Positions 3,446-43,466 are shown, counted from the first letter of the stretch. The stretch: 64,000 bases of DNA from Candidatus Multivoradales bacterium (GCA_965223325.1 CBDCWI010000002.1:1728001-1792000); one strand, 5' to 3'. Notes: a model not told the origin generated them from the letters alone. A program made the numbers and translations.

Positions 3446-3449
3446 TCCT

Positions 3450-3860: not shown

Positions 3861-3887
3861 GACCGAGTCTCCTTTCGTGGGGAATCT

Positions 3888-4532
3888 CTAAAAGCCAGCA
3901 CCTGGCTGACTGAGGTACAGGAGCTCCTCGCGCGTCGACTCACGACCGAGAATCTCGTTGCGGTGCGGAAAGCGGCCGAACTGCGCAATCACGTCACGGT
4001 GGCTTTCTGCGTAGGTAACGAACCCCAAGAAAGGTTCCTGCTGCGCGCCAGGCAGGCTGGCGGCGAGTTGGCGGCAGAGGGCGACGCTGTGCTCCTGGTC
4101 GGCGAGGTTCTCCGAATGTTCGAGCGGCAAGTAGAGAAACAGCCTCTCGATCGGTGTCAGCTGCTGGTCGACGCCCTCGGTGATCGCGCCCAATGCCATG
4201 TCACGCGCCAACGGGTCCTGGGCAAAAGCATCCGGCGTACCTCGGCAGACATTGCGCGAGAATTGATCGAGCACCACGACCACGGCCAGAAGACCGAGCG
4301 GGGTCGTCGACCAGATCGAACCGGGGGCACCGCTTCTGGTAGCCGCAAGTAGCGCGCCGAACCTCTCTTCGATCAACCGATCGACCTCGGGGTCGTGACT
4401 CCACCAGATCGCAGCCTGCGTCTGGGCAACTTCGGCGTCGTCGCCGCCCTCGGTGGGTCGGTGTCCGAACCAGTAGCGCAGCACCTCGAGCAGTCGCGGC
4501 GGAGCTCCTTTGTCGTAGCGACCCTGGTTCAT
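3888..4532 (-). CDS. DUF924 family protein
   Basis: YWFG, LDQFSRN, FLYLPLEHSE, FGRFPHRNEILGRESTREE; ATGA overlap with the upstream gene. Confidence 0.9.
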   Translation of the reverse strand: MNQGRYDKGAPPRLLEVLRYWFGHRPTEGGDDAEVAQTQAAIWWSHDPEVDRLIEERFGALLAATRSGAPGSIWSTTPLGLLAVVVVLDQFSRNVCRGTPDAFAQDPLARDMALGAITEGVDQQLTPIERLFLYLPLEHSENLADQEHSVALCRQLAASLPGAQQEPFLGFVTYAESHRDVIAQFGRFPHRNEILGRESTREELLYLSQPGAGF

Positions 4533-5599: not shown

Positions 5600-5764
5600 G
5601 GGGCGCACTTTAGAACACTAGGGGTGGTGTGATCCGGCCAATGGAGGCTCACCTCAAACGACTCGAGGGCCGCGCCCTCCTTCGAGAACGCGACCCTCTC
5701 GCCCTGGTGTCGCCAGCCAGCGACCAGTCATGCCGACGGCTTACCGAGGATCAACCGATGAGCT

Positions 5765-6298
5765 TCAGCCCTGGCCCGGACCGCCGGGTCCGCCGCGGCG
5801 CCCCCGCGGACCACCACGCCGACCGTGCTTGCCGCGGCGCCCTCCTCTACCCTCACGCAGGGTTTCGAACTTGATCCGCTGCTCGTCGTCGAGGAGAGCC
5901 GTCAGGTCAGTCTGAAGCGCCTCGTGCGCCGACTTCATTTCCTCACGCAGGGCGCGTCCCTGGAGCTGGAGTTCGCCGATCGCGGTTGCATCGTTGCTCG
6001 ACTCGAGCGCTTCGCGAGTCGCCTCACGGTTGGCCTGCATCCGTTCGCGAAGCGGCTCAGTGACAGCGCGGTGCGCCTCGTGGATTTCGTTCCAGGCTTC
6101 CTGCTGGTCTTCGCTCAGGTCGAGGATCTCGAACAGCCGCGCCTGATGCTTCAGAGCGCGTGCTTCGTGGTTGCCACGCTCACCGCGACGACCTTCTGGC
6201 GGTTGCGCGGTGGCAGCGGTTGCAACGGTGGAAAGAAACAGAAGGGCGGCGCAGGCGAAGGCGCCGCTACGAGGCGTTCTGAAGCGATGGATGTTCAT
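5765..6298 (-). CDS. Spy/CpxP-family periplasmic protein
   Basis: Signal peptide; LDLSEDQ and LLDDEQ (LTxxQ-like) motifs; Gly/Arg-rich tail; AGGAG SD. Confidence 0.8.
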   Translation of the reverse strand: MNIHRFRTPRSGAFACAALLFLSTVATAATAQPPEGRRGERGNHEARALKHQARLFEILDLSEDQQEAWNEIHEAHRAVTEPLRERMQANREATREALESSNDATAIGELQLQGRALREEMKSAHEALQTDLTALLDDEQRIKFETLREGRGGRRGKHGRRGGPRGRRGGPGGPGQG

Positions 6299-26993: not shown

Positions 26994-27581
26994 GTGGAAC
27001 AACCCGCGCTCGAGGCCGCACAGCCTCGCGACCCCGGTACCGCGAAGATCGGCAGAGAACGCCAGGCGCTCGACGAGCTCTTCGATGACCTCTACGTCGA
27101 CCTGAAGAAGGTGGCACGCGCCCAGCTCCGGCGCTGGCGACCGGGGCAGTCGATGAACACGACCGCGCTGGTCCATGAGGCGTGGTTCAAGTTCGAGCGC
27201 CAGAAGAGCCTCCAGGCCAGCGACCTCGAGCACTTCTACGCCATCGCGGCACGCGCCATGCGGCAAGTGCTGGTCGATTTCGCGCGCAAGCGAACGCGAC
27301 TCAAACGAGGAGCCAACGAGGAGCCGGTGGCCATCGAGTCGGGCCACCTTGAAGATCCACTCGACTTCGAGCAGGTCATCGTTATTGATCAGGCGCTACA
27401 TAAGCTCGAACAGCATTCGGAGCGTCTGGCGCGGGTGGTCGAGCTGCGCTTCCTGGTTGGCCTGACGGAGAAGGAAATCGCCCAGCTGTCCGGAGTCACC
27501 ACCCGCACGGTGCGCAACGAATGGGCCCGCGCCCGCGTCTGGCTGCGCGAGGCGATGAAGGCGGCTCCGCAGGCGCCCTAG
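26994..27581 (+). CDS. ECF sigma factor, TIGR02999-like (kinase-associated) family
   Basis: SMNTTALVHEAW, AMRQVLVDFAR, VVELRFLVGL, RTVRNEWARARVWL. Confidence 0.88.
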   Translation: MEQPALEAAQPRDPGTAKIGRERQALDELFDDLYVDLKKVARAQLRRWRPGQSMNTTALVHEAWFKFERQKSLQASDLEHFYAIAARAMRQVLVDFARKRTRLKRGANEEPVAIESGHLEDPLDFEQVIVIDQALHKLEQHSERLARVVELRFLVGLTEKEIAQLSGVTTRTVRNEWARARVWLREAMKAAPQAP

Positions 27582-28863: not shown

Positions 28864-29751
28864 TCAAAGCTCGATACAGGTCGCGCAGCAGTCGGCGGCG
28901 GCCGCCAACTCCCGGTCCTCGGCACACTGGTACTGCGGCTGGTCGGTGCGCTCGACCCGGTCGTCGGACTGCATGACAGAGTCTTTCCAGCTGTCATCGG
29001 CTGCCCAGACGTGCGGTAGATAAACCACCTCGCCAGGCCGCTCCAGGGTAGCGAGAGCCTCGAGCGCCCGCCGCGTGATGTCGAGCTGCTCGCCGGGCGC
29101 GTCTCGCCGGCCGGCCGTGTGACCGAGCGGATAGTCGAGGAATACGGCGCGCGGTGTACCGACGCTCTCGGTGATCGAAAGCGCCGACGAAAGGGCGACC
29201 GTCGGAATCCCAGATGCTTCGAGCTCACGTGCAATCAGCCCCACGGACTGATGACAAACCGGTCACACGGGGACCAGAAGAGCAACGTCGACTTCGTCGT
29301 CGTGCAGCCTCCTGGTGATCTCCGGGGCAAGCCTTTCCCGCACGCGGCGGGCCGAGTAGATCCCACCCATGAAGGTGTAGGCGCGAGCTGCGAGTTCGCC
29401 AATGAATCCCCCGTCGACGAGGCGACGTAAGGGGTCGAGCGGGAACACGACGTTGGGATCGGCCATCGCATCTTCGGTGTCGTAGGCGAAGTGTGCGATG
29501 CGCAGATCAGCGACTGGCGTCGCCGTGTCGACGATGCGGGCGCTTGCGTCGTCCCGGTAGTGAAAGGCGCGCTGGCCAGCAACATAGATCCCACCCGATG
29601 CGACCAGGCCCACTCTGCATTCGGACAGCGGCTTGGCAGGTACTTCGAACGGTGGCGCGCCCGGGTTGTAAACCCAACGGTACTCGGGAAACCCTTCGGC
29701 TGAATAGAGGGCCCGGGTGCGAGCGATGTAGTCGACGGGCGGGCGAGACAT
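28864..29751 (-). CDS. GrdB/PrdB-related selenoprotein (reductase selenoprotein B family), UGA at 29263-29265 read as Sec
   Basis: Two ORF-track ORFs join in frame as LLVPV-U-PVCHQSVGLIARELEASGIPT; a stem-loop starts 10 nt after UGA. Confidence 0.85.
29234..29252 (-). promoter_or_regulatory. Candidate bacterial SECIS hairpin
   Basis: mRNA after UGA: CCGGUUUGUC AUCAGUCC GUG GGGCUGAU; 8-bp stem (one GU pair) with a G-led apical loop ~18 nt from UGA. Confidence 0.65.
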
Positions 29752-29894
29752 AATAATCTCATTCTAGCCCTCTGTCCCGACCAAAGAAGGCCTCACCCGA
29801 AGGAGCACGTGTCTCGGTGCGATTCTCGGTGGTGTAGACCCCTGGGTCGATAGAATCTCCAGCAGACCTGTCTTGGGTTCTTCTGCCCGCCTGG

Positions 29895-31832
29895 TTGCCG
29901 CTGCCCTCCAGCTCTTCACTGCACAGCTCTTCACTGCCCGACCCAGCGCACCCTCTCCGACGAAAGCACGCCTTGTTCGAAGACGTTCCAGAAATCACGA
30001 GTCGCTATGACTCGTTCGAGAAGATGGCCGAAGGTGGCATGGGCACCATCTACCGTGCCCGTCACACGCATCTCGACGAACTGAGAGTCATCAAGACGGT
30101 CAAGCGCGACCTGCGACGCGGTGACTCGATGATGCGCTTCAAGCGCGAAGCGCAGATTGCCGCCAAGCTGCGCCACCCGAACATCGCGTCAGTGTACGAC
30201 TTCGTCGTCGACGACGAGGGGCGGGCGTTCCTGATCATGGAGTACATCGATGGCATGAACCTCTTCGAGTACTACGAAGAGGGCTTTCGACTTTCACCCA
30301 AACAGCTCGGCGTAGCCGCAGATCAGATCCTCGACGCGCTCGACTACCTGCACTCGCAGAACTTCATTCATCGCGACCTGTCGCTCGACAACGTGATGCT
30401 CACCCGAGGGCCGCGCGGCGAGAGTGTCTACAAGATCATCGACCTCGGTCTGGCGAAGTCGCTAGACCACGTCGACTTCAGCACCCAGACCGGAATCGCC
30501 CTCGGCAAGGTGAGCTACATCTCACCCGAGGAGCTCACCCACGGATCAGGGTCGGACCACATCGACCACCGCTCCGACCTCTACTCGTTCGGCGTCGTGC
30601 TCTACCACCTGATCACCGGCGAACTGCCAATCACTGGCACCGACCAGGCGTCGCTGATTGCCGGCCATCTCTACCGTCCCCCCAAGAGCTTCGAGCTCAC
30701 CGACCCGGGCGGCAAGATCTCACGTGGCTTGCGAGGCGTCCTGCTCAAGGTGCTCGAGAAGGATCCGCGCGACCGCTGGAAGAGCGCTCGCGAACTGCGC
30801 GATGCCCTGGCCCAGCACCTCGAAATGAGTGGCGCCGCCCCCGCCTCGGAGATTCTCAACGAGACCACCGCCCTTCCCAGCCGTCGCAAGACCGAGCCAG
30901 GCGGCACCGTGGCAACCCTACGCACCTGGCTCGACTCGACTCCCAGAAGGATCGCCCTGGTGGTCGCCACCATCGGCCTGGCGGCCGCACTGACGTTCGC
31001 TGCAGCCAAACTGAGGACCCCCACGGACGAAAGCGCGGCCGTTGCCGACAACCCAACCAACGTACAAAAGCCCGAAGGCCCCGGCGTCTTCTTCGGCAAC
31101 TACCACGCACTGGTCATCGGCAACAACCAGTACGAGAAGCTCCGCGATCTCGAAACCGCTGTGCGTGACGCGCAGGAAGTCGAGCTGTTGCTGCGACAGA
31201 AGTACGGCTTCAAGGTCACCCTGCTCGAGAACGCCACCCGCCAAGACATTACCGACGCCTTCTTCGAGCTCGAACAAACGCTGACGCCGCGCGACAACCT
31301 CCTGGTCTACTACGCCGGGCACGGTCACCTCACCCAGCGAGAACAGCAGTGGTGGCAGCCAGTCGACGCCGAACCCAACGACAACACACAGTGGATATCA
31401 ACCCGCCACGAGGTGACTGGCTTCGTCGATCACGTGCCCGCCCGCCACGTCCTGGTGGTAGCGGACTCGTGTTACGCCGGTTCTGACAACCAGCTCCCGC
31501 CGGTCGACGAGCCGATCGATGTTCTAGCGAGTCGCAAGTCACGCCTCCTGATGACCTCCGGGTCGCTCGAGCCGGTTCCCGACAGCGGCGGCGGCGGCCA
31601 TTCGGTGTTTGCCAGGGTTCTTCTCGACCTGCTGCGAGACACCCAGAAGCCGACCGCCGCAACCGAGTTCTTCGCAACCATCGAAAAGGAATTGCCACGG
31701 CTGGCAAAGCGAACCGGCGTCGACCAGACACCGACTTTCTCGCCGATCTCAGGAACCTCAGATCAGGGCGGCATGTTCTTCTTCGTTCCCCAACCGGTCG
31801 ACGACCCGCCCGCCATCAGCTCGGGACCCTGA
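29895..31832 (+). CDS. Ser/Thr protein kinase - TM - caspase-like (peptidase C14) domain; start uncertain
   Basis: EGGMGTIY, VIK, HRDLSLDN, DLG, SPE; TM IALVVATIGLAAALTFAAA; ALVIGNNQY, YYAGHG, ADSCYAG. Confidence 0.88.
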   Translation: MPLPSSSSLHSSSLPDPAHPLRRKHALFEDVPEITSRYDSFEKMAEGGMGTIYRARHTHLDELRVIKTVKRDLRRGDSMMRFKREAQIAAKLRHPNIASVYDFVVDDEGRAFLIMEYIDGMNLFEYYEEGFRLSPKQLGVAADQILDALDYLHSQNFIHRDLSLDNVMLTRGPRGESVYKIIDLGLAKSLDHVDFSTQTGIALGKVSYISPEELTHGSGSDHIDHRSDLYSFGVVLYHLITGELPITGTDQASLIAGHLYRPPKSFELTDPGGKISRGLRGVLLKVLEKDPRDRWKSARELRDALAQHLEMSGAAPASEILNETTALPSRRKTEPGGTVATLRTWLDSTPRRIALVVATIGLAAALTFAAAKLRTPTDESAAVADNPTNVQKPEGPGVFFGNYHALVIGNNQYEKLRDLETAVRDAQEVELLLRQKYGFKVTLLENATRQDITDAFFELEQTLTPRDNLLVYYAGHGHLTQREQQWWQPVDAEPNDNTQWISTRHEVTGFVDHVPARHVLVVADSCYAGSDNQLPPVDEPIDVLASRKSRLLMTSGSLEPVPDSGGGGHSVFARVLLDLLRDTQKPTAATEFFATIEKELPRLAKRTGVDQTPTFSPISGTSDQGGMFFFVPQPVDDPPAISSGP

Positions 31833-31835
31833 GGG

Positions 31836-32690
31836 TTGCTCCTGTCCTCGCGCCAACGGCGAGGGATGGTCCTCTTCGCGACTGCTCTAGCGGTCTACGG
31901 TTGCGCTTCACCCGGTGCGCGACTCGACCGCCAGGCGGCCCAGAAGGGCCTCGCCGTGCTCACTCTTGACGGTGGCACCCATCGACTTCGGGCCTACGCC
32001 CAACCAGGCTGGCAAGAAGCAACCGCCCTGCGCATCTACCTCGAAGGCGACGGGCTACCTTTCATCACGCCGGTTCAGCCGGCAAGAGATCCACACCCAC
32101 ACCGCGCCCTCGCTCTCGAGCTCGCGATCGCCGACCCTCAGCCGGCAGTGTGGATCGGTCGACCCTGCTACCACCGCGACCTCAAGAAGGGTGAGGCCTG
32201 CCCTCAGGGCTTGTGGACTGAAGGCCGCTACTCGGACGATGTCGTTTCTGCGCTGGTTCTGGCGATCGAGGACTTGCTGGGGCGGGCCCAGGAGTCGACA
32301 GGCGAAAGGCCGGTGGAGCTCTTTGGCTACTCGGGCGGCGGAGTGCTCGCCGTCCTCCTGGCACACCGCCTGCCTGAGGTCGAGCGCATCGTCACCGTCG
32401 CTGCCAACATCGATCTGGTCGCCTGGACCGACCTGCACGCCTACAGCCCGCTCACCAGTTCACTCGATCCGGCGACTCTCGGTGCGCCGCCCCACGAGCC
32501 CCGTCAGGAGCACATCGCCGGGGCCCTGGACCGCAACGTTCCCGGCGCCCTCATCGAAGCGGTGGTCGGGGAATGGCCAAACACCCGCTTCCTCGAAATC
32601 GAGGCAGCCGACCACGCCTGCTGCTGGCTAGAAGGATGGCCCCAACTGCTCAGCCGTCTCGACGAAGAATTCGACTCGGGCTCTGGTTAG
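31836..32690 (+). CDS. Lipoprotein alpha/beta-hydrolase (start 31836 or 31866)
   Basis: Lipobox-like LAVYGC; IYLEGDG, RPC, GYSGGG nucleophile elbow, DHACCW. Confidence 0.8.
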   Translation: MLLSSRQRRGMVLFATALAVYGCASPGARLDRQAAQKGLAVLTLDGGTHRLRAYAQPGWQEATALRIYLEGDGLPFITPVQPARDPHPHRALALELAIADPQPAVWIGRPCYHRDLKKGEACPQGLWTEGRYSDDVVSALVLAIEDLLGRAQESTGERPVELFGYSGGGVLAVLLAHRLPEVERIVTVAANIDLVAWTDLHAYSPLTSSLDPATLGAPPHEPRQEHIAGALDRNVPGALIEAVVGEWPNTRFLEIEAADHACCWLEGWPQLLSRLDEEFDSGSG

Positions 32691-32861
32691 GAGAGGGCCC
32701 TAGTACCCCGTACCATTGAAACGGATAGTGGCTGAGCGGATGATCGTGCTCGAGATCAAGGCGTCACGACGCAGGCATATTGGTGATCTGTCGAGGAGTG
32801 ACAACACAGAGATCGAGCGCGAGAACCGCGCTGACGCTGTGCGTTTCAATGGCACGGGGTA

Positions 32862-34424
32862 CTAGCGCCGGACGAAGAAGAACTCGGAGACTCCGCCGCG
32901 TGCCCAACGCATGCTGGCGAACTCCGGCACGGAATTGCTGGTCGCCTCGAGACTCTCGCTCATCTGACGGTGGAGCCGCGAAGCTTCGAGCACTCCCTCA
33001 TTGTTCTCGAGCACCTCGAGAAAGGCCTCGGTGAACGAAGCGCCACCGTTCTCGCCCGACGGCGCGAGCACCAGGCGGGCTCGACGATCGAGGAGCTGCC
33101 GAATCCAGAAGGCGCGCTTTTCTTCACTCTGGCCAACCGGCAGACGGGCCACCGAAGAACGACTGCGAAGACCAGTGAACTCTGAGTCGGCCACCACCAT
33201 GACGTGACGGGCCGGCATCAGATCGAGATGGTCGGCCAACAGTCCGTTGGGAATCCAGTTCGCCTTGTTCTCGGCATCGGCGTCGACCGGTTGCCAATAC
33301 GCCATGCTGCGATCCACGTCGCGAGTGCCGTGGCCGGCGTAGTAGATCAGCAGGTTGTCCTTCTCGGTCAGCGACTCCCGGAGGCGATTGAGAGCCCGCA
33401 ACACATCAGCTCGGGTCGCGTCCGTGAGCAGCTCGACGTCGAAGTCGTAGCGCTCCTCGAGCGTCTTGGCGACCTTCCTGGCATCGCTCGCTGCATTGGC
33501 AACCGTTGGCAGGTGCTGGTAGGCCGAGTTGCCGATCACCAGTGCGTGATAGCTGCCGAAGCGCAGCGCAGACGGGTCGAACACCGAGCCGGCCTCGACC
33601 TGCTCGACCGAAACCGTGGCGCGCTTCTCGAGTTCGGCAACCTCGCGGGCCTTCTTCTGGAGCTCTTTCTGGTTGCTGTCGAGCTCCGAGCGAAGGCGGC
33701 TCACCAGACCCTCCAGGGTCTCTGCCCGCGAGCTCTCGGAATCGGCCGCGGCCCGGATCTGGCCGAGCTGGTTCTCGAGCTCGGCCACTTCGCGCTCGAG
33801 GGTCTGTACGGTTTGCTCGCGCTTGGCGATCTCACCGCGTAGACCTTCCAGGGCGCGCAACTCGCTAGCTTCGAGAACGACGAGGTTCTCAGCCGAACCG
33901 GCGGCGCTGCGGTAGAGGTTGAAGGCCTGTTCGACATCTCGCGCGACACCGAGACCCTCTTCGTGGAGCCAGGCCAGGGCGATCTTGGCCGGGGCATAGC
34001 CCTGTTCGGCGGCCATGCCGTACCAACGGGCGGCGGCCGCATAGTCCGGCACCACACCGAGGCCCTTCTCTTCGATCTGGCCGACGTAGTACTGAGCTTC
34101 CGGATCGCCCGCCTCGGCCGCCGGCTTCCAGGCGTCCAACGAGGTGGCGTAGTTGGCCTGATCGGGCTCGGTGTACTCGCCCCCACGAATGCGGCAATCG
34201 GCAGCGGTGGTGCGAATTGGTTGACGGGCCGTCAGGTAGAGGTTGCGCGACCCGAGGCGGCGCACGCGCGACGGCAGCAGACAGTCGACGATCACCAGAT
34301 CGTCGGGGTCAACGGTCTTCTGGCGAGACTTCTTTCCAACTGCATGAGAAGCAGGTGGGACAAGCGACGAAAGCAGGAAGAGAAACGAACTACCGAGAAC
34401 GAGGAGGGATCGTCTGGGGTTCAT
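32862..34424 (-). CDS. Exported Sel1-repeat + coiled-coil + catalytically altered caspase-like domain protein
   Basis: Signal peptide; DCLLP...DCRIRGGEY; Sel1 repeats (GDPEAQYYVG...GLGV); coiled coil; YYAGHG retained but ADSEF where ADSC is expected. Confidence 0.85.
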   Translation of the reverse strand: MNPRRSLLVLGSSFLFLLSSLVPPASHAVGKKSRQKTVDPDDLVIVDCLLPSRVRRLGSRNLYLTARQPIRTTAADCRIRGGEYTEPDQANYATSLDAWKPAAEAGDPEAQYYVGQIEEKGLGVVPDYAAAARWYGMAAEQGYAPAKIALAWLHEEGLGVARDVEQAFNLYRSAAGSAENLVVLEASELRALEGLRGEIAKREQTVQTLEREVAELENQLGQIRAAADSESSRAETLEGLVSRLRSELDSNQKELQKKAREVAELEKRATVSVEQVEAGSVFDPSALRFGSYHALVIGNSAYQHLPTVANAASDARKVAKTLEERYDFDVELLTDATRADVLRALNRLRESLTEKDNLLIYYAGHGTRDVDRSMAYWQPVDADAENKANWIPNGLLADHLDLMPARHVMVVADSEFTGLRSRSSVARLPVGQSEEKRAFWIRQLLDRRARLVLAPSGENGGASFTEAFLEVLENNEGVLEASRLHRQMSESLEATSNSVPEFASMRWARGGVSEFFFVRR

Positions 34425-34509
34425 GATGTGGGCTCCTTTGGGGGGACGGGCGATAGGCGAAAAGCAGAATCGAATGCAGGAAAACGGAAACGAGAAAAGT
34501 TGAAGGGTC

Positions 34510-37500
34510 TTAGAAGGTCTTGCGGTAGCCGACGGTCAACGTGGTGGTATCGAGATCGTCGCGCTCGAGATCGGTGTCGCCAAGGAAGAAGAAGGAATGA
34601 CCCCGCGGCAGGGTCAGATTCAGTCCCACACCAACGTTCAGGTAGTCGCGGTCTGGGTCCTCGGTGAGAATGAAGAACTGCTCACCCGTCGGATCGAGCG
34701 CCAGGCGGCCGGCAACCGAACGCACATCGTCCTCGAACTCATGCAGCCAGGTGGCACGCATGATCGGCTGGATAACACCCCAGTCGCGAGAGTAAGAAAA
34801 GGTCATATCGAAGCCGGCTTCGGTGACCAGCGACTCTGCCGACTGGTCAGAGATCGTCAGGCCGAGCGCACCGCCACCGGTTTCGGTGTAGCCGTCGACA
34901 TTGACGTCAGTCCAGTTAACTCGGGCAATCCCGCCCAGAATTCCACGGTTTCCGAGCCGGAAATCGTGGCCCAGGCCGAGGTGGAAGGCCAGCGCGTCGG
35001 TCGAGGTCGAACCAAGCGCAGTCAGGGTTCCGAGGTTGCCCGGCTGGCGGATCTGGCGCTCGAGGTCGAAATCGATCTGCGCGAAGGTCGCCGCTACGTC
35101 GACGTGGAAGGCTCGCTTCTGCCAACCGGTGTAGAGCGTCAGGCTGTAGCCCTCGGCATCGGCAGTGCCATTGTCGTGCGAGAACTCGGTGTCACCCTGC
35201 GTGTAGCCGATCGCGCCACCCATCCACATGTTGTTGGTGACCTGGTAGTCGACACCAGTGGTCAGGCCCTGGGTTTCGAAGTCGTAGCCGCCTTCGCGAC
35301 CGCTGTCCGGGCGATCACCAAAGGCGAGGCGCCCAGTCACGAACCAGCCGAGGCGATGCTGATCGATTGACGAGTCGGTGCGGCCCGGCCCGTCCGGCTC
35401 ATCGGCGCTTGCACCACCACCGCGTAGCCGGTCGAGTGCCCGATCGACCCCTCGGTCGAGGGCTTCCGGGTCGACGGACTGATCGTAGGGCGAACGCCCG
35501 GCCTGGGCCAGCGCTGCGACCGGAACGTTCTCGCCGCGCACGCTCATGCCGAGGCCCGCGATACCGTTGGTGGCCGCTCCCGAGCGCAGCGCGCGCAGGC
35601 GAGCCGCGACGTTGCCGGTCTGAATCAAAGCGCCACCCATTCCGATGCGAGCCGGCACGGTGATCTCTTCGGGCGTGGCCTCTTCGATCAAAGCGCGCTG
35701 CTCTTCAGGGGGCAAGCTGAAAATCTGCTGACAGCTGACGGCAAGATCTCCCTCGGCCGTCGCACAGGCCGAGTCGATCGCACCCGCAAACGAAGACTCG
35801 TTGGGGGACTCGTCTTCGTCAAAAAGATCGGCCGTGTTGCCGGAGACGGTGATCACGAAGGTGATGCGTTGGCCGGTAGCCGCCGAGGTCGCAACAACGG
35901 TGTAATCGCCGGGAATCGGCCCGAGCGCAACCCGCTGGCTGGCGGTGCCGGAAGCATCGGCTGCAGTGGTGGCTCCGTCCTGGAGAGTCACGCCCGTCGC
36001 CGACCAGGTCACCGCGGTGCCCACCAGGAGGTTGCCGTTTCCGTCTCTGATCTCGGTGCTCAGGACGATCGTCGTGTCGACCTTGCCAGCCACTTCGATG
36101 GTCACGTCGGGCGGCGCTGGAATGGTGGGAGTGCCACCGCCACCGCCACCATTACCGCCACCGCCGCCGTTGCCACCGCCGCCGTTGCCGCCACCACCGC
36201 CGCCGTTGCCACCACCACCACCGCCGTTGCCACCACCGCCACCGCCACCGGTGGAGTCGTCGTCGTTGACGATCGTCACGGTGCCGCTGGTCATCTCCTG
36301 GTCGAGACCGGTGAGGCCTTCGACAATGACTTCGAACGTCTCGTTTGCTTCGGGCTCGAGGTCGCCACGGATGCTGACCTCGAAAGAGGCGCTGTTCGAA
36401 CCCGCTGGAATCGTGACCTGGCCGCTTCCGGCAACGTAGTCGGTGTCGTCGGTCGCCGTGCCGTTCTGGGTCCGCCAGTTGCCAGTGAGGTCTACGGCCA
36501 GCGGCTCGCTGACGGCAAACGTCATGGTCACGGCGCTCAGGCCCGAGTCGCCTTCGGGTACCGAGACATCCTGGAGCGACGGAGTAGGCAAACCGCCGCC
36601 ACCACCACCGGCCGCGTCGTCGTTCTGGATAGTGACCGTACCGGCTGCCTTGATCACGCTGACGGTGGCGTTGGCCGAGATTTCGACGGTGAAGGCCTCA
36701 TCCTCTTCGACCGCCGTGTCGCCGAGCACGAAGACCTCAATGTCGCCACGCGTCTCACCGGCAGCGAGCTGCAAGGTGCCTGAAGCCATGACGAAATCCT
36801 CCCCAGCGGTGGCTGTTCCCGCAACCGCCTGCCACGCGACATCGAGAACCGCGGGCAGGGCTTCGCTCACAGTCACCGGTAGGAGAACCGAGAACTGACC
36901 GCCGTTGCCCTCTGCAAGACTGACGTCGCCGATCTCGAGAGTGGGCAGCGCGGGACCATCATCGTCGGCGATTTCGATCGTCACCCGGGTGCGGTCCAGG
37001 GTTGCGTTCTCAACACCCGAAAGGTCGACGAAGAAGCGCTCCAACACCTCCTGCACATCATCGTCGATGATCTGCAGAGGAATCGTCGCCTGTGACTGGC
37101 CAACGCCGATGGTGACCGTCCCGGTTGCCGCGACAAAGTCACTCCCAGCTGCAGCCGAGTCATCGCTGGTCGCATAGGTGAAACGAATCGGGCCCTGGCG
37201 GTCGCCATTGACGTTGACAGCAAGCTCGAGGCTACCGCCGTTGGCACTCTCGGTCACGCGCACGTCGCCAACCGACACCACCGGCGGCGCCGTGCCCCCG
37301 CCCTGACCATCGTCATCATCATCGGTGATCTCAACAACGACGCGCGGACTCGCAAGCGTCGCGTTGACGACATCGGTGAGATCGACGAAGAACTGCTCGG
37401 GGTCTTCCACCTCGAGGTCGTCGAGGATCGTAAGGCGAATCGTGGCACCCTGTTGACCGACGCCGATGGTGACCTGCCCGGTTTCCTGGACGTAGTCCGA

Positions 37501-39177
37501 GCCGGCAATCGCCGTGTCGTCGGCGGTGGCGTAGGTAAAGGTGATCGGCCCCTGCCGGGCTCCCGAAACGCTCACCGCCAAGTCGTAGATCCCACCGGCA
37601 TTGGCGCCCTCGACGACCGGCTGCGCATCGACAGAAACCACCGGCAGACCCGCACCACCGGGCTGGTCGTTGTCGTTGTCGTTGATGGTGACGGCAACTC
37701 GCGTGTTGGCAAGCGTCGCGTTACTCACCGCACTCAGATCGACGAAGAACTGCTCCGCGTCTTCTTGCTCAGCATCGTCGAGGATGCGGAGTCGAATGGT
37801 CGCGCTCTGCTGGATAGCACCGATCGTGACCTGGCCCGTCTCGGCCTCGTAGTCACTTCCGGCGATAGCAGTGCCGTCGGCGGTCGCGTAGGAGAAGGAA
37901 ATCGGGCCCTGACGGGTACCAACCACACTCACCGTCAGGTCGTAGTTACCGCCCGGATCGGCGCCCTCAGTGACCGGCTCTGCCTCGACTGTCACCACGG
38001 GAAGCGCACCGCCACCCCCACCACCATCGTCATCATTGATGGTGACCGCGACGCGGGTACTGGCGAGAGTCGCGTTGTTCACGCCACTCAGGTCGACGAA
38101 GAACTGCTCCTGGCCCTCGGCCTCGTCATCGTCGAGAATCCGCACTCGAATCGTCGCACTCTGTTGGCCGACGCCCAGAAAGACACCGCCATTTCCGGAC
38201 ACGTAGTCGGAACCCGCAACCGCGGTTCCATCTGCGGTTTCGAAGTTGAACGAAATCGGCCCCTGCCGGTCCCCGGCTACGGTGACGTCGAGATCGTAGT
38301 TGCCGCCCTGGTTGGCTCCCTCGGTCACCGGCGCAGCAGACACGGTGACCACCGGAAGCGCGGTGATGTCATCGTTGAGTACCAGGACAGTGGCCGATGA
38401 AGTCACGCCCATTTGCCCACCGTCAACCGACACGATCTGAATCGAGAAGTCCTCGTCGTTCTCGACTTCGACGTCACCAAGCACCGGGACCGAGATCGAC
38501 TTGGTGTCTTCGCCGGCCGAAAACGTCGTTTGGCCGAAGACCGCCCGATAGTCGCTGCCCGCTATCGCCGACCCATCGACCGTCTGGTAGGTCACGGTCA
38601 CCGGGTTGGCGGCGGCTGCGCTGAGCGTCAGCTTGGCGGACGCATCGGACTCACCGGCATTGCCTTCTAGAACCGAACTCGCTTCGATCGAAACCACTGG
38701 CAAGGCGACCCCGACGGCCGTATCGTCGTCGAGAACCGTCGCCGTGGCGATGCCCGCCGAAGCCGGCTGGATCGCTGCGCCCTCGGGATCGGAAAGCACG
38801 ACCTGGAAGGTCTCGACGTTCTCGGACAGGTCGTCACCAACGAGGGTGACGCGAATCGATCCAGAAAGCAGTGGTCCCTCGAGCTCCAGGCGACCGCTGG
38901 CCTCGACAAAGTCGGAACCCGGCTGCGCCGTGCCCGGCACCGTTTCCCAATTGACCGACACCCGATCGACGACGCGCTGCTGGCGCAGGAGCTGGACGGT
39001 AACCGGAAAGACGGCCTGCGAAAGGCCATCGGTCTCGGTGACCGTAATGTCGCCCACCGAAACCAGAGCCTCGGGGTCCTGCGCCGCAACGGCTGTCGAC
39101 AGGAACGCACCGACGAGCAGCGCACAGAGCAGAGCCGTGGCGTTGCGGGGCAGCGCGCAGAAGGTTGAAGCCAGCAT
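34510..39177 (-). CDS. Autotransporter-type outer-membrane protein with 8 Calx-beta repeats, a Gly/Asn linker and an Ig-like domain
   Basis: Signal peptide from ATG 39177; eight repeats V.V....V.EG...TA.AGSDY...DD..E..E.F.V.L...I.DDD; C-terminal beta-barrel (TTGVDY, W.HEF) ending in YRKTF. Confidence 0.88.
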   Translation of the reverse strand: MLASTFCALPRNATALLCALLVGAFLSTAVAAQDPEALVSVGDITVTETDGLSQAVFPVTVQLLRQQRVVDRVSVNWETVPGTAQPGSDFVEASGRLELEGPLLSGSIRVTLVGDDLSENVETFQVVLSDPEGAAIQPASAGIATATVLDDDTAVGVALPVVSIEASSVLEGNAGESDASAKLTLSAAAANPVTVTYQTVDGSAIAGSDYRAVFGQTTFSAGEDTKSISVPVLGDVEVENDEDFSIQIVSVDGGQMGVTSSATVLVLNDDITALPVVTVSAAPVTEGANQGGNYDLDVTVAGDRQGPISFNFETADGTAVAGSDYVSGNGGVFLGVGQQSATIRVRILDDDEAEGQEQFFVDLSGVNNATLASTRVAVTINDDDGGGGGGALPVVTVEAEPVTEGADPGGNYDLTVSVVGTRQGPISFSYATADGTAIAGSDYEAETGQVTIGAIQQSATIRLRILDDAEQEDAEQFFVDLSAVSNATLANTRVAVTINDNDNDQPGGAGLPVVSVDAQPVVEGANAGGIYDLAVSVSGARQGPITFTYATADDTAIAGSDYVQETGQVTIGVGQQGATIRLTILDDLEVEDPEQFFVDLTDVVNATLASPRVVVEITDDDDDGQGGGTAPPVVSVGDVRVTESANGGSLELAVNVNGDRQGPIRFTYATSDDSAAAGSDFVAATGTVTIGVGQSQATIPLQIIDDDVQEVLERFFVDLSGVENATLDRTRVTIEIADDDGPALPTLEIGDVSLAEGNGGQFSVLLPVTVSEALPAVLDVAWQAVAGTATAGEDFVMASGTLQLAAGETRGDIEVFVLGDTAVEEDEAFTVEISANATVSVIKAAGTVTIQNDDAAGGGGGGLPTPSLQDVSVPEGDSGLSAVTMTFAVSEPLAVDLTGNWRTQNGTATDDTDYVAGSGQVTIPAGSNSASFEVSIRGDLEPEANETFEVIVEGLTGLDQEMTSGTVTIVNDDDSTGGGGGGGNGGGGGGNGGGGGGNGGGGNGGGGGNGGGGGGTPTIPAPPDVTIEVAGKVDTTIVLSTEIRDGNGNLLVGTAVTWSATGVTLQDGATTAADASGTASQRVALGPIPGDYTVVATSAATGQRITFVITVSGNTADLFDEDESPNESSFAGAIDSACATAEGDLAVSCQQIFSLPPEEQRALIEEATPEEITVPARIGMGGALIQTGNVAARLRALRSGAATNGIAGLGMSVRGENVPVAALAQAGRSPYDQSVDPEALDRGVDRALDRLRGGGASADEPDGPGRTDSSIDQHRLGWFVTGRLAFGDRPDSGREGGYDFETQGLTTGVDYQVTNNMWMGGAIGYTQGDTEFSHDNGTADAEGYSLTLYTGWQKRAFHVDVAATFAQIDFDLERQIRQPGNLGTLTALGSTSTDALAFHLGLGHDFRLGNRGILGGIARVNWTDVNVDGYTETGGGALGLTISDQSAESLVTEAGFDMTFSYSRDWGVIQPIMRATWLHEFEDDVRSVAGRLALDPTGEQFFILTEDPDRDYLNVGVGLNLTLPRGHSFFFLGDTDLERDDLDTTTLTVGYRKTF
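36131..36250 (-). repeat. Low-complexity GGN-codon tract encoding a (G4-6N)n linker
   Basis: ccaccgccg/ccgttg repeats; translation GGGGGGGNGGGGGGNGGGGGGNGGGGNGGGGGNGGGGGG. Confidence 0.9.
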
Positions 39178-39501
39178 GGTATTCCAGAGTCCCGGCCAGA
39201 GCCCTACCGATGGCAGCGCACAGCCTCCAGGAGAGAGTCGGTTGGGCACGTCGATTTCTCGATGGGGCCTTAGAAAAAGCGACACATAGACGTCCCGGCC
39301 ACGCCAATGGGCGTACCCGAACAGGTCAAGAAGAACACCCCTTATTTTGTCATAGGCAGCTATGTATGAATAGAGCGGCCCCTCTCCGAAGCCACGACTT
39401 CTGGTATATCTTGCTGAACGTCGCACACCGAAACTCGGAAACCTATTGGCACATCCGGCTGTCACCTCCCAGCCGTACTCACCAGCGGAGACAAGCGAGC
39501 G

Positions 39502-40638
39502 ATGAGGGAATGGCGCCTTCAGGGTGCGCTCGAGCCAGAGGGGCCGATCTGGCAAACGCGCATCCGCCCACTGCCCTTTCAGATCGGGCGGCTTCCCCGT
39601 GCCGGTCTGACGCTGGTGTCGTCGAACGTTTCCCTCGAGCATGCCGAGCTCTTCGAGCGCGACGGTGAGCTCTGGCTGCGCGATCTCGGCAGCACCAACG
39701 GAACCTTCGTCAATGGCGAACCGGTGCGCTCGGAACGCTGCCTACGCGAGGGCGACCTCCTCCACTTCGCCGATCTCGATTTCAAACTCATCGAACACGT
39801 CGAGAACGAGCGCACCACTGCCTCGGAGGGCACGCTGCAAATGCAGCGCACGGTGCCGGGCATGCCCCCGCGGATGATCCGCGGCGTCAAGGAGCTTCTC
39901 GACTCGGTTGAGGGCGCCGTCACCGTCGCCTATCAGGAGATCGTCACCCCGACGACCGGCAGGGTCGTCGGCTATGAGGCTCTCGGCCGCGCGACCGCCG
40001 ATGACCTGCCCCAGAACCCCAACGAGCTGCTCGACCTGGCGGACCGCCTCGACCTCTTGCCGGAGACCATCGGAGCGCTCCGCCGTAAGGCGCTCCTGGA
40101 TGCCCCGCGTTTCCCACTCACTCCTGACGGTGGCCAGCCGGCGCTCTTCCTGAATTCGCATCCGCGCGAGGTCGAGTCACCCGTCGCCCTGTATGAAGAC
40201 CTACGGAAGTTTCGAGAAGACCAGCCGACCATTCCACTGGTGGTCGAAATCCACGAGACGGCGATCGGGCGGGGTGCGGCGTTCGACCACTTCCGCCAGC
40301 AGCTCGACGATCTCGGTGCTCAACAGGCTTTCGACGACTTCGGAAGCGGGGTCGACCGGCTGCGCGAGCTGTGCGAACGATCCCCGCACATCGTCAAGTT
40401 CGATCAGCACTTTGCACGCGACCTCGCGCACGGTTCGAAGCAACGCTCGCTGCTCACCGCGCTTCTCGACACCATGGCCGCCTTCGGGATCAAGACCCTC
40501 TTGGAGGGCATTGAAACCCAGGACGAGGCACTCGAGTGCGGCAGCCTCGGCTTCGACTTTGCACAGGGCTACTTCTGGGGTCGGCCACGAAGCCTCGAAG
40601 ACATGATTCGAGAGGCGAGGGCACCTCGGACGGATTGA
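39502..40638 (+). CDS. FHA-EAL domain protein (putative c-di-GMP phosphodiesterase)
   Basis: FHA: IGR, VSLEHA, DLGSTNGTFVNG; EAL: YEALGR, FLN, EIHE, DDFGSG, VKFD, EGIET, QGY. Confidence 0.9.
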   Translation: MREWRLQGALEPEGPIWQTRIRPLPFQIGRLPRAGLTLVSSNVSLEHAELFERDGELWLRDLGSTNGTFVNGEPVRSERCLREGDLLHFADLDFKLIEHVENERTTASEGTLQMQRTVPGMPPRMIRGVKELLDSVEGAVTVAYQEIVTPTTGRVVGYEALGRATADDLPQNPNELLDLADRLDLLPETIGALRRKALLDAPRFPLTPDGGQPALFLNSHPREVESPVALYEDLRKFREDQPTIPLVVEIHETAIGRGAAFDHFRQQLDDLGAQQAFDDFGSGVDRLRELCERSPHIVKFDQHFARDLAHGSKQRSLLTALLDTMAAFGIKTLLEGIETQDEALECGSLGFDFAQGYFWGRPRSLEDMIREARAPRTD

Positions 40639-40657
40639 GGTTCCGGTCGCTTTCGGC

Positions 40658-41563
40658 CTACGGCACGACGCTCTGTTCGATCTCGCGGGGGCGAATCAGG
40701 CACTCCTGGGCGGCTGAGCACACCAGGTTGCCGTCGCGATCGAAGAAGCGACCGCGCACGAAACCGCGGGCACCACAGGCAGTCGGGCTTTCCTTCGAAA
40801 ACAGCAACCAATCGTCGGCTCGAAACGGCCTGTGAAACCACATGGCGTGGTCGAGGCTGGCGCCCTGAATGGTGAAGCCGCCGAGCGATTCGCGATGCGG
40901 CAGCATCGAGGTACTCATGAAGTCCATATCGGACATGTAGGCCAACAACGAAAGATGTACCGAGCGATCGTCTGGCAGCTCCCCCTTGATGCGCATCCAG
41001 GTGTTCTTCGAAGGCTGCTCGGCTTTGCCGTGGCGAGGAATCATGTAGATGCCTTCGCACTGACGGCTGTCGATGGCCGCAAAGCGAAAGGCAAAGCGCT
41101 CGATCGTCGGGTCTTTCTTGGCCAGCCGCTGGTAGTAGTCCCAGTCGCTCTCGAGGTCTTCTGGCGCGGGGACGTCAGGCATTGGATCCTGGTGCTCGAG
41201 GCCACCTTCGTCGATCTGAAAAGAGCCCGCCATATTGAAAATGGCGCGACCGTGCTGAACGCCAACCACGCGCCGCGTGGTGAAGCTTCGCCCGTCGCGA
41301 ATGCGGTCGACCTCGAAGAGAATCGGGCGCGCGTGGTCCCCCCGGCGTAGGAAATAGCCGTGAATCGAATGCAGCGAGCGGTCAGGCGGGGTGGTCCGGC
41401 TGGCGGCAACGATCGCCTGCCCCAGAACCTGGCCACCGAAGACGTGAGTACCAGGACCGTTCTGAGCCCGAAAGAGGTTCTCTTCGATGGACTCCATCTG
41501 CAACAAGTCGACCATCGACTTGACGGTCTGGTCTGCCGCCGCCGACTGCGGAGAATCGCTCAA
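40658..41563 (-). CDS. tesB: Acyl-CoA thioesterase II
   Basis: VFGGQVLGQA, HSIHGYFLR, RDGRSFTTRRV, YMSD, SLDHAMWFH, QECLIR; TTG 41563 overlaps the upstream TGA and has a GAGGAGG SD (alternative ATG 41515). Confidence 0.9.
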   Translation of the reverse strand: MSDSPQSAAADQTVKSMVDLLQMESIEENLFRAQNGPGTHVFGGQVLGQAIVAASRTTPPDRSLHSIHGYFLRRGDHARPILFEVDRIRDGRSFTTRRVVGVQHGRAIFNMAGSFQIDEGGLEHQDPMPDVPAPEDLESDWDYYQRLAKKDPTIERFAFRFAAIDSRQCEGIYMIPRHGKAEQPSKNTWMRIKGELPDDRSVHLSLLAYMSDMDFMSTSMLPHRESLGGFTIQGASLDHAMWFHRPFRADDWLLFSKESPTACGARGFVRGRFFDRDGNLVCSAAQECLIRPREIEQSVVP

Positions 41564-42033: not shown

Positions 42034-43206
42034 TCACTGGCCCTGACCGAAAGCGATTTCGAGCCCCACCACCAGAATCGGCACGACGTCGCGTGGGTCA
42101 TGGAGCTCGCGTCGACGCCAGACCACCCCCGGCTCGATGTCCAGGAACAACCAGTCGCGCAGGAAACGTTCGCGATAGATCACCTGTAACGCCAGGTCGC
42201 GCACGCCGACGTTCAAGTCGGTTTCACCGCGGGCGCTGGCTCGATACCCGAACGCACGTTCGTCGCCGAAGCCCTGGTAGAAGGTGAGCTCCGAATACCA
42301 ATCGACGCCGCGCGTCGCCTCGGAGAGAACACCGACGTTGCGAAATCGCACCAACAGGTTGGGCCTGAGCAGGTGCTCGAAATCAAGCCGGGTGGTGGTG
42401 CCGACTCCGTCCTCGTTCTCCCAGAAGACCGTCTGGCGAAATCGCCACAGGGTGTACTCACCGCGCGGGAAGACGTGCCGGTAGCGAAGCTTCAGGTAGG
42501 GGTTCATCGGGAACTGGAAGTCCATCCCGAGGTCGACGTCGAAGCGACTGCGTGCCGATCGCAACGGGCTGTAGCCAAGACCCACCAGCCACTCCTCGTC
42601 CTCGTCGAAAGAAAGAAAGTCCGACACCCGGGTCGTGCGCTGTTCACGATCGGTCACCACGTCCTTACGGTCTTCGCGGCCGATGAAAGCCCGAAGCCGC
42701 CGCTCGGCCTGCGGCAACTCGTATTCGGCATGGAAACGGATCTCGTCGCTCAGACCCTCGTGGTCGTCCCAGTTGACGCCAACCATCAACCGCCCGTGGG
42801 TGCGGTTGTACTCCTCGTCGAAGCGGGTATCGCCAAACAGTCCGTCGAACCAGCGCGAGCTCGCACAGACCGCGCGGTAGAGACCGCGCTGAACCCGATC
42901 GACCCAGGCACGAGAATCGCCGGGACGCGGCGTACAGGGTTTCTCCTCCGCTTCTAGCGCTGCCTCCTCCGGCGCGTTTTCCGGCACGTGGTCTTCGGCG
43001 TTCTTCGGAGTCTCATCCCCATCGAGCCGCGGCTGCTCCCTGATCGGAGCCTGGGGCGATGGAGACGGTGCCGGCGGTACCTGCGCGCGGGCGGTCGCCG
43101 CCGTCACGATGAAAACCAGACCGACCCAGACACCGAAGGAAGTGCCGGTTCCGAACGGCGTACGTCTCGAGGCCGAAGGGATGGGGAGTTTGGATCTGAA
43201 CAGCAT
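42034..43206 (-). CDS. Putative outer-membrane beta-barrel protein
   Basis: Signal-like segment, WFDGLFGD motif, alternating amphipathic strands, terminal LEIAFG; start uncertain. Confidence 0.6.
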   Translation of the reverse strand: MLFRSKLPIPSASRRTPFGTGTSFGVWVGLVFIVTAATARAQVPPAPSPSPQAPIREQPRLDGDETPKNAEDHVPENAPEEAALEAEEKPCTPRPGDSRAWVDRVQRGLYRAVCASSRWFDGLFGDTRFDEEYNRTHGRLMVGVNWDDHEGLSDEIRFHAEYELPQAERRLRAFIGREDRKDVVTDREQRTTRVSDFLSFDEDEEWLVGLGYSPLRSARSRFDVDLGMDFQFPMNPYLKLRYRHVFPRGEYTLWRFRQTVFWENEDGVGTTTRLDFEHLLRPNLLVRFRNVGVLSEATRGVDWYSELTFYQGFGDERAFGYRASARGETDLNVGVRDLALQVIYRERFLRDWLFLDIEPGVVWRRRELHDPRDVVPILVVGLEIAFGQGQ

Positions 43207-43466
43207 TCTCGAGAACTGGTGCGACGGAGACCTCATTCTACGACGCAACCCATGACGCCTCGAGCATCTTGCCGCTGCCCGATCTCTTGACCCGAACCTC
43301 CGAAAGCATGGCACTGGTCTCCAGGCGCAGCCCCGGGACGACTGAACCGGGCTCGCGGGGCACCCAAGCGGCCTGGCGGGAAAAATCCGTCCCAGAGTGC
43401 TAACGCATGCCGGCAGAGTTCGTCCTCTTCTCTAGCACTGCCAATCGAGACCTCGAGGACCTTCGC

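Follow-up and report, generated by a model that had tools for sequence, protein, structure and literature searches.

In a 64,000-nt stretch of the Candidatus Multivoradales bacterium genome GCA_965223325.1 (the window; its own genome is called G000 below), five contiguous genes encode a receptor kinase carrying a caspase-like C14 domain, a small serine hydrolase, an exported Sel1-repeat protein ending in a second C14 domain, an autotransporter and a protein with FHA and EAL domains. An initial annotation had proposed these as one envelope signalling system, and ORF listing, translation and Pfam searches recovered all five of its open reading frames (ORFs) with their coordinates and domains. 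We read them as a candidate copy of a conserved trans-envelope signalling module, whose parts in the window are as follows.

29895..31832, + strand: receptor kinase-caspase, with a Hanks-type Ser/Thr kinase, one transmembrane (TM) helix and a predicted periplasmic C14 domain
about 30009-30785, +: kinase domain (Pkinase, E 2.8e-44)
30951-31007, +: TM helix (residues 353-371), one hydrophobic helix between kinase and C14
31104-31742, +: C14 domain of the kinase (Peptidase_C14, E 1.7e-20)
31320-31322, +: His476, catalytic His, intact
31470-31472, +: Cys526, catalytic Cys, intact
31836..32690, +: lipoprotein-like alpha/beta serine hydrolase, 4 bp after the kinase-caspase stop
32862..34424, - strand: exported Sel1 pseudo-caspase (signal-like leader; Sel1, E 8.5e-14; Peptidase_C14, E 3.5e-18)
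32913-33548, -: C14 domain of the Sel1 protein, caspase-like and Cys-less
33180-33182, -: Glu415, at the catalytic Cys position
33603-33869, -: helical hairpin (residues 186-225 and 231-274 in the model)
33900-34151, -: Sel1 helices (two Sel1 repeats by Pfam)
34155-34307, -: N-terminal two-Cys beta domain of the Sel1 protein
34510..39177, -: type Va autotransporter, likely start Met156; the longest ORF extends to 39642
34585-35343, -: beta-barrel (Autotransporter beta-domain, E 6.9e-53)
35578-35607, -: linker helix with the conserved RL.ALR motif
about 36133-36255, -: Gly/Asn-rich linker (residues 1130-1170, runs of Gly6-7/Asn units)
about 36256-39084, -: eight Calx-beta repeats (E 1.5e-105)
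39178..39501, no strand: 324-bp spacer separating the divergent autotransporter and FHA-EAL genes
39502..40638, +: cytoplasmic FHA-EAL protein (FHA, E 4.9e-15; EAL, E 7.1e-36)
39580-39768, +: FHA domain
39910-40587, +: EAL domain, all catalytic motifs kept

The kinase of the first gene (PF00069, 151.9 bits against a cut-off of 31.7) shows in translation the Gly loop, the Lys of the VIK motif, HRD...N, DLG and SPE, which we take to be the catalytic motifs, and its C14 domain (PF00656, 74.2 bits; curated cut-off 21.4) has the His-Cys catalytic dyad in place (His476 and Cys526). The start codon is uncertain (TTG at 29895 or a later one); a 602-aa database record begins at Met44, a start that would cut into the kinase N-lobe. 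Topology was read by heuristics, namely a Kyte-Doolittle hydrophobicity scan and a loose lipobox-like pattern. Given that the kinase is cytoplasmic and is followed by a single helix, the C14 domain should lie outside. All 11 kinase-caspase fusions have exactly one TM helix between the two domains, and 59/65 kinase-only partners of Sel1-caspases have one helix, with a tail beyond it of median length 115 residues. In Acidobacteriota metagenome bins such fusions are common, Pkinase and Peptidase_C14 occurring together in 38 of the 120 best listed C14 relatives.

The Sel1 protein also matches PF00656 (66.6 bits, cut-off 21.4) and retains the His (His365), with Glu415 in place of the Cys; it is therefore a pseudo-protease rather than an active C14 member. 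Its structure model is confident (pLDDT 86.4, pTM 0.78) and includes a four-stranded N-terminal domain bearing two invariant cysteines, Cys48 and Cys77. From the initial description of a Sel1/coiled-coil/caspase-like protein, the Sel1 repeats, the C14 domain and the exported leader stand, and the coiled coil is modelled as a helical hairpin instead. The nearest solved folds are MALT1 and metacaspases (Foldseek E about 1e-10 to 1e-8; 16-20% identity). Relatives of this protein, called Sel1-caspases here, all have a hydrophobic leader and about half have a lipobox-like motif (loose pattern), so that the same heuristics place both caspase-like domains of the window outside the inner membrane, as had been predicted. 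The family of caspase homologues so placed is large: 5,140 proteins reached E 1e-20 or better among the 8,000 candidates scored. Homologues P0131, P0142, P0146, P0147, P0168 and P0187 include carriers of the precomputed families PF27734, PF27881 and PF28256, which may be newly curated families for parts of the Sel1-caspase protein; PF24161, on the same homologues, is a coiled-coil family, CCDC39.

Pfam matches of the hydrolase to alpha/beta-hydrolase families stay under the curated cut-offs (20 bits against 27). Its structure model is confident (pLDDT 94.3) and Ser166, Asp232 and His260 are invariant among 48 homologues, which together confirm a serine hydrolase; Cys111 and Cys122 are invariant as well. 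Residue 23 is a Cys in a lipobox-like context, a motif found in 39/48 hydrolases by the loose pattern, and the assignment of the second gene as a lipoprotein alpha/beta-hydrolase holds. The gene is single-copy in G000. Searching the hydrolase against the sequences of solved structures returned nothing (best E 0.89), the ESM Atlas gave only unnamed alpha/beta-hydrolase clusters, and a fold search with the model gave only generic esterase, lipase, phospholipase A and prolyl-oligopeptidase folds (TM-score about 0.5-0.6), from which a substrate cannot be inferred.

The autotransporter has the features of type Va: a C-terminal PF03797 match (180.4 bits, cut-off 26; residues 1434-1686 of 1710), a signal-like leader from Met156 and a passenger with eight Calx-beta stretches. 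Starting translation at Met156 (39177), where the leader begins, removes the overlap with the FHA-EAL gene and leaves the 324-bp divergent spacer. At its other end the gene lies 85 bp upstream of the Sel1 pseudo-caspase gene. The Arg-containing RL.ALR linker motif is conserved across 49 aligned module autotransporters. The Gly/Asn run, which joins the last Calx-beta repeat to an Ig-like segment, is a spacer of low complexity whose length could vary. As for the fifth protein, its PF00563 match reaches 124.2 bits (cut-off 31.3) and all metal and substrate motifs of the EAL domain (EAL, N, ExxE, DDFG, K, EGxE, QG) aligned to chain 3s83_A, which predicts a cyclic di-GMP (c-di-GMP) phosphodiesterase of the EAL type.

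Conservation of the gene set was examined with the Sel1-caspase as anchor. Scanning 185,579 species genomes for the two N-terminal motifs found in the four own-genome paralogues gave 365 pattern matches, 303 of them encoding a relative (confirmed loci), and the best 80 of these 303 were used; 41 of the 80 are well-flanked, with at least 6 kb on each side of the Sel1-caspase. The gene set is defined here as a Sel1-caspase with the N-terminal IVDCL...DC.IRGGE domain plus neighbours from the four other families, called by phmmer with the window domains against six-frame ORFs of the loci, within a limit of 6 kb. Loci came mostly from Gammaproteobacteria (Zhongshania, Spongiibacter, Cellvibrio, Pseudoteredinibacter, Steroidobacteraceae, Salinisphaera, Spectribacter, Kangiellaceae, Halieaceae), and also from Thermoanaerobaculia and other Acidobacteriota and from Methylomirabilota. 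Partners within 6 kb of the Sel1-caspase were distributed as follows.

kinase: 59/80 loci; 37/41 well-flanked
hydrolase: 47/80 loci; 28/41 well-flanked
autotransporter: 43/80 loci; 26/41 well-flanked
FHA: 17/80 loci; 14/41 well-flanked
EAL: 1/80 loci; 1/41 well-flanked
all four partners (kinase, hydrolase, autotransporter, FHA): 11/80 loci; 10/41 well-flanked

Unbiased all-against-all clustering of the neighbours recovered the same families and added a PP2C phosphatase, present in 13 loci and each time beside the FHA gene. The grouping of the five gene families is more than chance, as Sel1-caspase genes of other phyla have these families around them too, and the link between kinase and Sel1-caspase is its firmest part. 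In a synteny test set beforehand, kinase, hydrolase, Sel1-caspase and autotransporter thus held together as a conserved gene set across phyla. The five-gene system as first proposed is borne out for these four and probably for the fifth gene, an FHA reader being a recurrent member; the fusion of that reader to an EAL domain is found beside the module only here.

In a typical Zhongshania locus one strand encodes, in this order, a tandem-FHA protein, a Sel1-caspase lipoprotein, a 420-aa autotransporter, the hydrolase lipoprotein and a kinase whose single TM helix leads into a helical tail of about 110 aa. Four gammaproteobacterial genomes have no C14 gene besides the Sel1-caspase. One of the genomes (locus L079) has its sole C14 gene, sole autotransporter, sole FHA gene (two domains) and one of its two kinases all within about 6 kb, and in another (L050) the sole autotransporter adjoins the sole C14 gene. 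The hydrolase, searched in 301 sampled Gammaproteobacteria, was found in 43 (the unpublished genome G331 included), and in the reverse test a Sel1-caspase, autotransporter, FHA, PP2C or kinase gene lay within 1.5 kb, the whole flank examined, at 20/28 hydrolase loci.

Further genes accompany the module in some lineages. Pseudomonadales/Salinisphaeraceae loci (L050 7432-14502, L073 11586-18479, L078 13195-20065, L083 14458-21309) have tandem-FHA and PP2C genes followed by a multihaem cytochrome c of about 420-466 aa and a roughly 1250-aa LVIVD-repeat/cytochrome protein, a possible module partner or output in these loci. Ten Cellvibrio-type loci have a roughly 1150-1200-aa PKD/Big/cadherin-like surface protein inserted between autotransporter and kinase (for example L054 13014-16502, L066 13188-16616 and L038 11229-14843).

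G000 itself contains seven C14 matches in four Sel1-caspase loci, the window and the three below; in three of the four the Sel1-caspase has a kinase-caspase partner gene, and in three it adjoins an autotransporter, of which the genome has ten.

Locus B (L008), G000 C1:256000-260000: Cys-less Sel1-caspase directly upstream of a kinase-TM-caspase
Locus C (L009), G000 C2:2626000-2634000: short autotransporter, 1427-aa kinase-coiled-coil-TM-caspase, then a Sel1 protein
Locus D (L010), G000 C2:1584000-1590200: intact-dyad Sel1-caspase divergent from a Calx-beta autotransporter; no kinase

The pair of kinase-caspase and dead Sel1 protein therefore occurs three times in this genome. The Sel1 protein of locus C has neither the His nor the Cys, and the kinase of the same locus has a roughly 800-residue helical spacer ahead of its TM helix. 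Among 31 related genomes, G000 included, seven carry a Sel1-caspase.

Catalytic residues are distributed between the two C14 domains in a complementary manner. In most loci the Sel1-caspase keeps the His-Cys dyad and the kinase has no caspase domain; His and Cys are both kept in 70/83 Sel1-caspases of the first set, the 13 Cys-less ones being Acidobacteriota sequences and two from Halieaceae. All full kinase-caspase fusions keep both residues (11/11), and their Sel1 neighbours lack the Cys in 10/10 assessable cases, with Val, Ala or Glu there instead and the His mostly kept. Two loci fall outside this count, L130 because its 20 kb contain no Sel1 gene and L132 because the contig ends within the neighbouring one. 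No active Sel1-caspase with a kinase-caspase neighbour was found, the fusions standing only beside Cys-less Sel1 proteins; conversely, G030 (L129) has an active Sel1-caspase and a kinase without a C14 domain.

In a quick maximum-likelihood tree of the C14 domains, the kinase-borne domains form one clade (11 rows, SH-aLRT 95) nested in a group of 36 rows (99) together with the dead Sel1 clade (17 rows, 99) and active Sel1-caspases of the locus D type. Partner subtrees are mirrored: the window goes with L008 and L124, L009 with L125 and L132/L131, and L011 with L016 and L018. This pattern fits a history in which the catalytic domain moved once to the kinase and the pairs were then duplicated as units, as far as such a tree can suggest it.

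A complex of the two C14 domains was modelled from kinase-caspase residues 392-645 and Sel1 protein residues 282-520, with a purpose-built alignment for each. It scored 0.68, against 0.36 for the best of three controls; this mark is reached by 58/80 solved complexes and 2/110 mismatched pairs. The runs share at least 95% of contacts, with a partner pLDDT of at least 82. Both chains contribute equivalent elements to the predicted interface, namely the helix that follows strand 2 and a Trp-bearing segment beyond the catalytic His (residues 449-461, 480-484 and 496-513 of the kinase-caspase; 338-346, 369, 374 and 385-402 of the Sel1 protein). The model supports binding of the two domains, which is not to show it. 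Since the interface Trp positions are invariant throughout the Sel1-caspase family, the same face could serve a homodimer where a single active Sel1-caspase exists. The pairing of caspase and pseudo-caspase that the initial annotation had put forward is thus favoured by the catalytic complementarity, the mirrored partner trees and the passing complex model.

Based on the gene linkage across phyla, the catalytic residues kept or lost, the heuristic topology and the predicted C14-C14 interface, we take the region, with a probability of about 0.5, to be one copy of a conserved and so far undescribed trans-envelope signalling module. Its core would be the exported Sel1-repeat protein ending in C14 together with the single-pass Hanks-type Ser/Thr kinase, and its usual accessories the small lipoprotein serine hydrolase, the type Va autotransporter, the cytoplasmic FHA reader and often a PP2C phosphatase. 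In most bacteria, judging by the residues retained, the Sel1 protein appears to be an active protease and the kinase tail short, helical and periplasmic; in the lineage of the window the active C14 would sit on the periplasmic end of the kinase, the Sel1 protein would have no catalytic activity, with pairing predicted between the two C14 domains.

We infer a working for this module that extends to its stimulus, the protease substrate, the direction of signalling, the c-di-GMP output and any cleavage of the autotransporter. The Sel1 protein would report the state of the outer membrane or of the autotransporter to the kinase ectodomain, where C14-C14 pairing would gather kinase molecules or gate proteolysis; the kinase would then autophosphorylate and the FHA domain dock on phospho-Thr, which in this genome could bring an EAL c-di-GMP phosphodiesterase under module control. 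A more specific version, in which the caspase/pseudo-caspase heterodimer is the extracytoplasmic receptor-kinase switch, with the autotransporter as sensor or substrate, the dead-caspase Sel1 protein as adaptor and the active caspase as kinase ectodomain, and in which pairing or proteolysis sets Thr phosphorylation, FHA docking and c-di-GMP turnover, is held tentatively, at odds well short of even. If true, it would be a principle of proteolysis-coupled trans-envelope signalling without a described bacterial counterpart, descended from an ancestral module whose Sel1-caspase was itself the active protease.

Several observations weigh against the module as we read it. The accessories are facultative: locus B in the same genome has no autotransporter, and the hydrolase was not found in 4/5 further Acidobacteriota genomes searched (it was in one). 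Even the kinase is missing within 10 kb of L014. Halieaceae loci L072 and L075 have a Cys-less Sel1-caspase beside kinases without C14, such that one active caspase per module is not universal. The rows behind the complementarity are kin rather than independent and probably reflect one evolutionary event. Furthermore, the predicted C14-C14 interface presumably differs from the classical caspase dimer face. One control reached 0.36 and the PDB contains dimers of the caspase family, so that resemblance to solved structures may account for part of the pass.

The same caution applies to the FHA-EAL gene, for which homologues are present in 16/31 related genomes (G000 included). At none of the 18 homologue loci fetched does an autotransporter, Sel1-caspase or hydrolase gene lie within about 10 kb; a same-genus genome (G001) lacks this locus arrangement and carries the FHA-EAL gene standing alone (L106); and G000, with 51 Pkinase and 17 FHA matches, has an unusually rich Ser/Thr phospho-signalling repertoire in which FHA-EAL could serve another kinase. 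These facts feed an alternative that we consider doubtful as a whole: the real unit would be four genes, or two operons (kinase-caspase with hydrolase; autotransporter with Sel1 pseudo-caspase), and FHA-EAL an unrelated neighbour. In G024 the two operons do lie apart, the autotransporter and Sel1 protein on one contig (L126) and the kinase-caspase and hydrolase on another (L130), and the module is therefore patchy and modular. Against a mere neighbour speak the recurrence of FHA proteins in the module of other phyla (14/41 loci), the genome in which the module FHA gene is the only one, the FHA-domain protein of the L128 module and the low chance of an FHA gene flanking a given cluster, which we estimate at about 0.5% (about 15 FHA genes in roughly 5,500). 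The divergent spacer shared by the FHA-EAL and autotransporter genes also counts for membership, and a kinase lies within 10 kb of the homologue in 8/18 loci, directly adjacent in three of those. All considered, membership of FHA-EAL in the module is likely rather than secure, a weak link with close to even odds. The c-di-GMP output, if real, would be a local invention of this genome: proposed at first as an output of the module, it turned out to be genome-specific, given the 18 homologue loci just described and a single EAL gene within 6 kb among the 41 well-flanked loci. The L128 protein mentioned above, from a related genome, is another FHA fusion within the module (3029-5830, + strand; 933 aa, FHA plus CsgG-like plus SH3) and lies between the autotransporter and the Sel1/kinase-caspase pair.

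Signalling might also run the other way, as in the Lap system, where LapA is the adhesin, LapG a periplasmic Cys protease and LapD a c-di-GMP receptor. Under such inside-out control the kinase and FHA protein (and c-di-GMP through EAL here) would set the periplasmic C14 protease, which, assisted by the hydrolase, would cleave the linker or passenger of the autotransporter so that the surface protein is released or remodelled. A large surface protein and a periplasmic Cys protease are indeed genetically linked, and the EAL domain of the window adds c-di-GMP to the link in this genome; the autotransporter directly adjoins the Sel1-caspase (within 300 bp) in 19/41 well-flanked loci, as part of the 26 in which it lies within 6 kb; an active C14 site is kept somewhere in nearly every module; and the conserved linker motif contains Arg, orthocaspases being known to cleave after basic residues (PMC6426788). 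Yet the analogy, raised in the initial annotation, fails on every defining part in Pfam and NCBIfam scans: the protease is a C14 and not of the LapG type, no LapD-type receptor is present (NF045673, 29.3 bits against a cut-off of 1020), and in place of a type I-secreted RTX adhesin there is an autotransporter of type Va. A kinase/FHA pair makes the connection to the cytoplasm, EAL is rare in the module as counted above, and many module passengers have only about 100-150 residues, unlikely adhesins. Receptor kinases with ectodomains, moreover, usually signal inward. We therefore regard inside-out control as unlikely.

It is more improbable still that the Sel1-caspase and hydrolase are a periplasmic chaperone/protease pair that assembles autotransporters or clears stalled ones, with kinase and FHA only tuning expression or activity. 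Tight autotransporter adjacency, the two genomes whose only autotransporter is that of the module, and Sel1 repeats being protein-binding scaffolds (Pfam family description) would suit this quality-control role, but 15/41 well-flanked loci have no autotransporter within 6 kb when 37/41 have the kinase, locus B dispenses with it too, and autotransporters of type Va normally do without a dedicated factor. A role as a caspase-based system for cell death or anti-phage defence seems very improbable. Defence systems do include caspase-like proteases and Ser/Thr kinases, the kinase domain is hit by PADLOC kinase models (PD-T4-6, for example), and C14 weakly matches the PADLOC 'caspase' and the NCBIfam EACC1-associated caspase (72 bits against a cut-off of 140). 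However, the PADLOC matches are at generic domain level, the hydrolase and FHA-EAL match no PADLOC model, both C14 domains are predicted outside the cytoplasm and their partners are envelope proteins. The flanks hold unrelated metabolic genes (acyl-CoA dehydrogenase, GRDB-like ORF, acyl-CoA thioesterase, GFA, MacB/FtsX permease), which makes the five genes a bounded block, and the eight neighbours scanned include no mobile-element or defence gene.

A literature search found no published description of a Sel1-caspase/kinase/hydrolase/autotransporter/FHA gene set, in line with the earlier impression that no such architecture had been described. In the portion of a 2012 survey available (PMC3501461), Sel1 is a common metacaspase partner domain and the terms 'autotransporter' and 'FHA' are absent; its supplements might list such operons. 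In working principle the closest known system would be the TagQR-PpkA-Fha1 pathway, by analogy only as the parts are not homologous. That pathway is reset by a PP2C phosphatase. In the H1 type VI secretion system (H1-T6SS) of Pseudomonas aeruginosa (TagQRST-PpkA-PppA-Fha1), the ectodomain of a single-pass Hanks kinase is the target of an outer-membrane lipoprotein and a periplasmic protein, which probably dimerise the kinase, and the kinase phosphorylates an FHA protein (PMC13713981). The module has the same layers, namely lipoprotein and periplasmic proteins, kinase, FHA and, in 13 loci, PP2C. It differs in its periplasmic parts (C14 protease, serine hydrolase, autotransporter) and in its output (an EAL domain or a bare tandem-FHA protein). 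The FHA of the window scores 23.9 bits against a cut-off of 120 with the T6SS model TIGR03354, and is thus not of the TagH/Fha1 type. Type VI genes were absent from the recurrent neighbour families whose representatives were scanned, and Pfam and NCBIfam scans of the five window proteins, with no search aimed at them, named none of TagQ, TagR, TagS and TagT.

Dead caspase-like domains have precedents. Pseudo-orthocaspases (Klemencic et al. 2019; PMC6426788) have a p20/C14 domain that lacks a catalytic residue, keeps the fold and is conserved; those described are Tyr-Ser variants associated with photosynthetic Alphaproteobacteria and with Cyanobacteria. Sel1, Acidobacteria and heterodimers did not come up in a term search of the text. 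The Sel1 pseudo-caspase is likewise a C14 domain without a catalytic residue, but here the His is mostly kept, the Cys is replaced by Val, Ala or Glu and the dead copy always stands beside an active kinase-borne one (10 assessable). In animals, pairing of two caspase-fold domains activates, and one of the two may be dead, as in caspase-8 with cFLIP and in MALT1. MALT1 and metacaspases being the closest solved folds to the Sel1 pseudo-caspase model, a likeness exists; the relation is only distant at the identity given above, the setting here is predicted to be periplasmic and one partner is a kinase ectodomain.

The module would belong to receptor-kinase/FHA envelope signalling, with a sensory apparatus that has no described counterpart. 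Bacterial caspase homologues are abundant and almost none has a known job, the discussion being mostly on cytoplasmic cell death. A large family of them is here placed outside the inner membrane, in a fixed partnership with a receptor kinase, FHA reader, phosphatase, serine hydrolase and autotransporter, which yields testable hypotheses for four poorly understood protein groups together and suggests a new way for Gram-negative cells to sense or remodel their surface. The move of the active site from scaffold protein to kinase is a natural experiment. Given that carriers include cultured marine and soil Gammaproteobacteria (Zhongshania, Spongiibacter, Cellvibrio, Salinisphaera), genetics is feasible.

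Around the five genes, a promoter/terminator scan of 29500-40900 gave two promoter-like and five terminator-like sites, not above shuffles, with no convincing promoter-like match anywhere in the divergent spacer (39178-39501). A 426-aa ORF without a Pfam match at E <=0.001 lies at 42034-43314 (- strand); its hydrophobic stretch is well within the N-terminal part, and it may be an exported protein with a later true start. Sigma factors of the PF07638 type are often partnered with Ser/Thr kinases. The window has an extracytoplasmic function (ECF) sigma factor gene of this type (26994-27581, + strand; E 8.7e-35) at 2.3 kb upstream of the kinase-caspase gene, with two opposite-strand genes in between.

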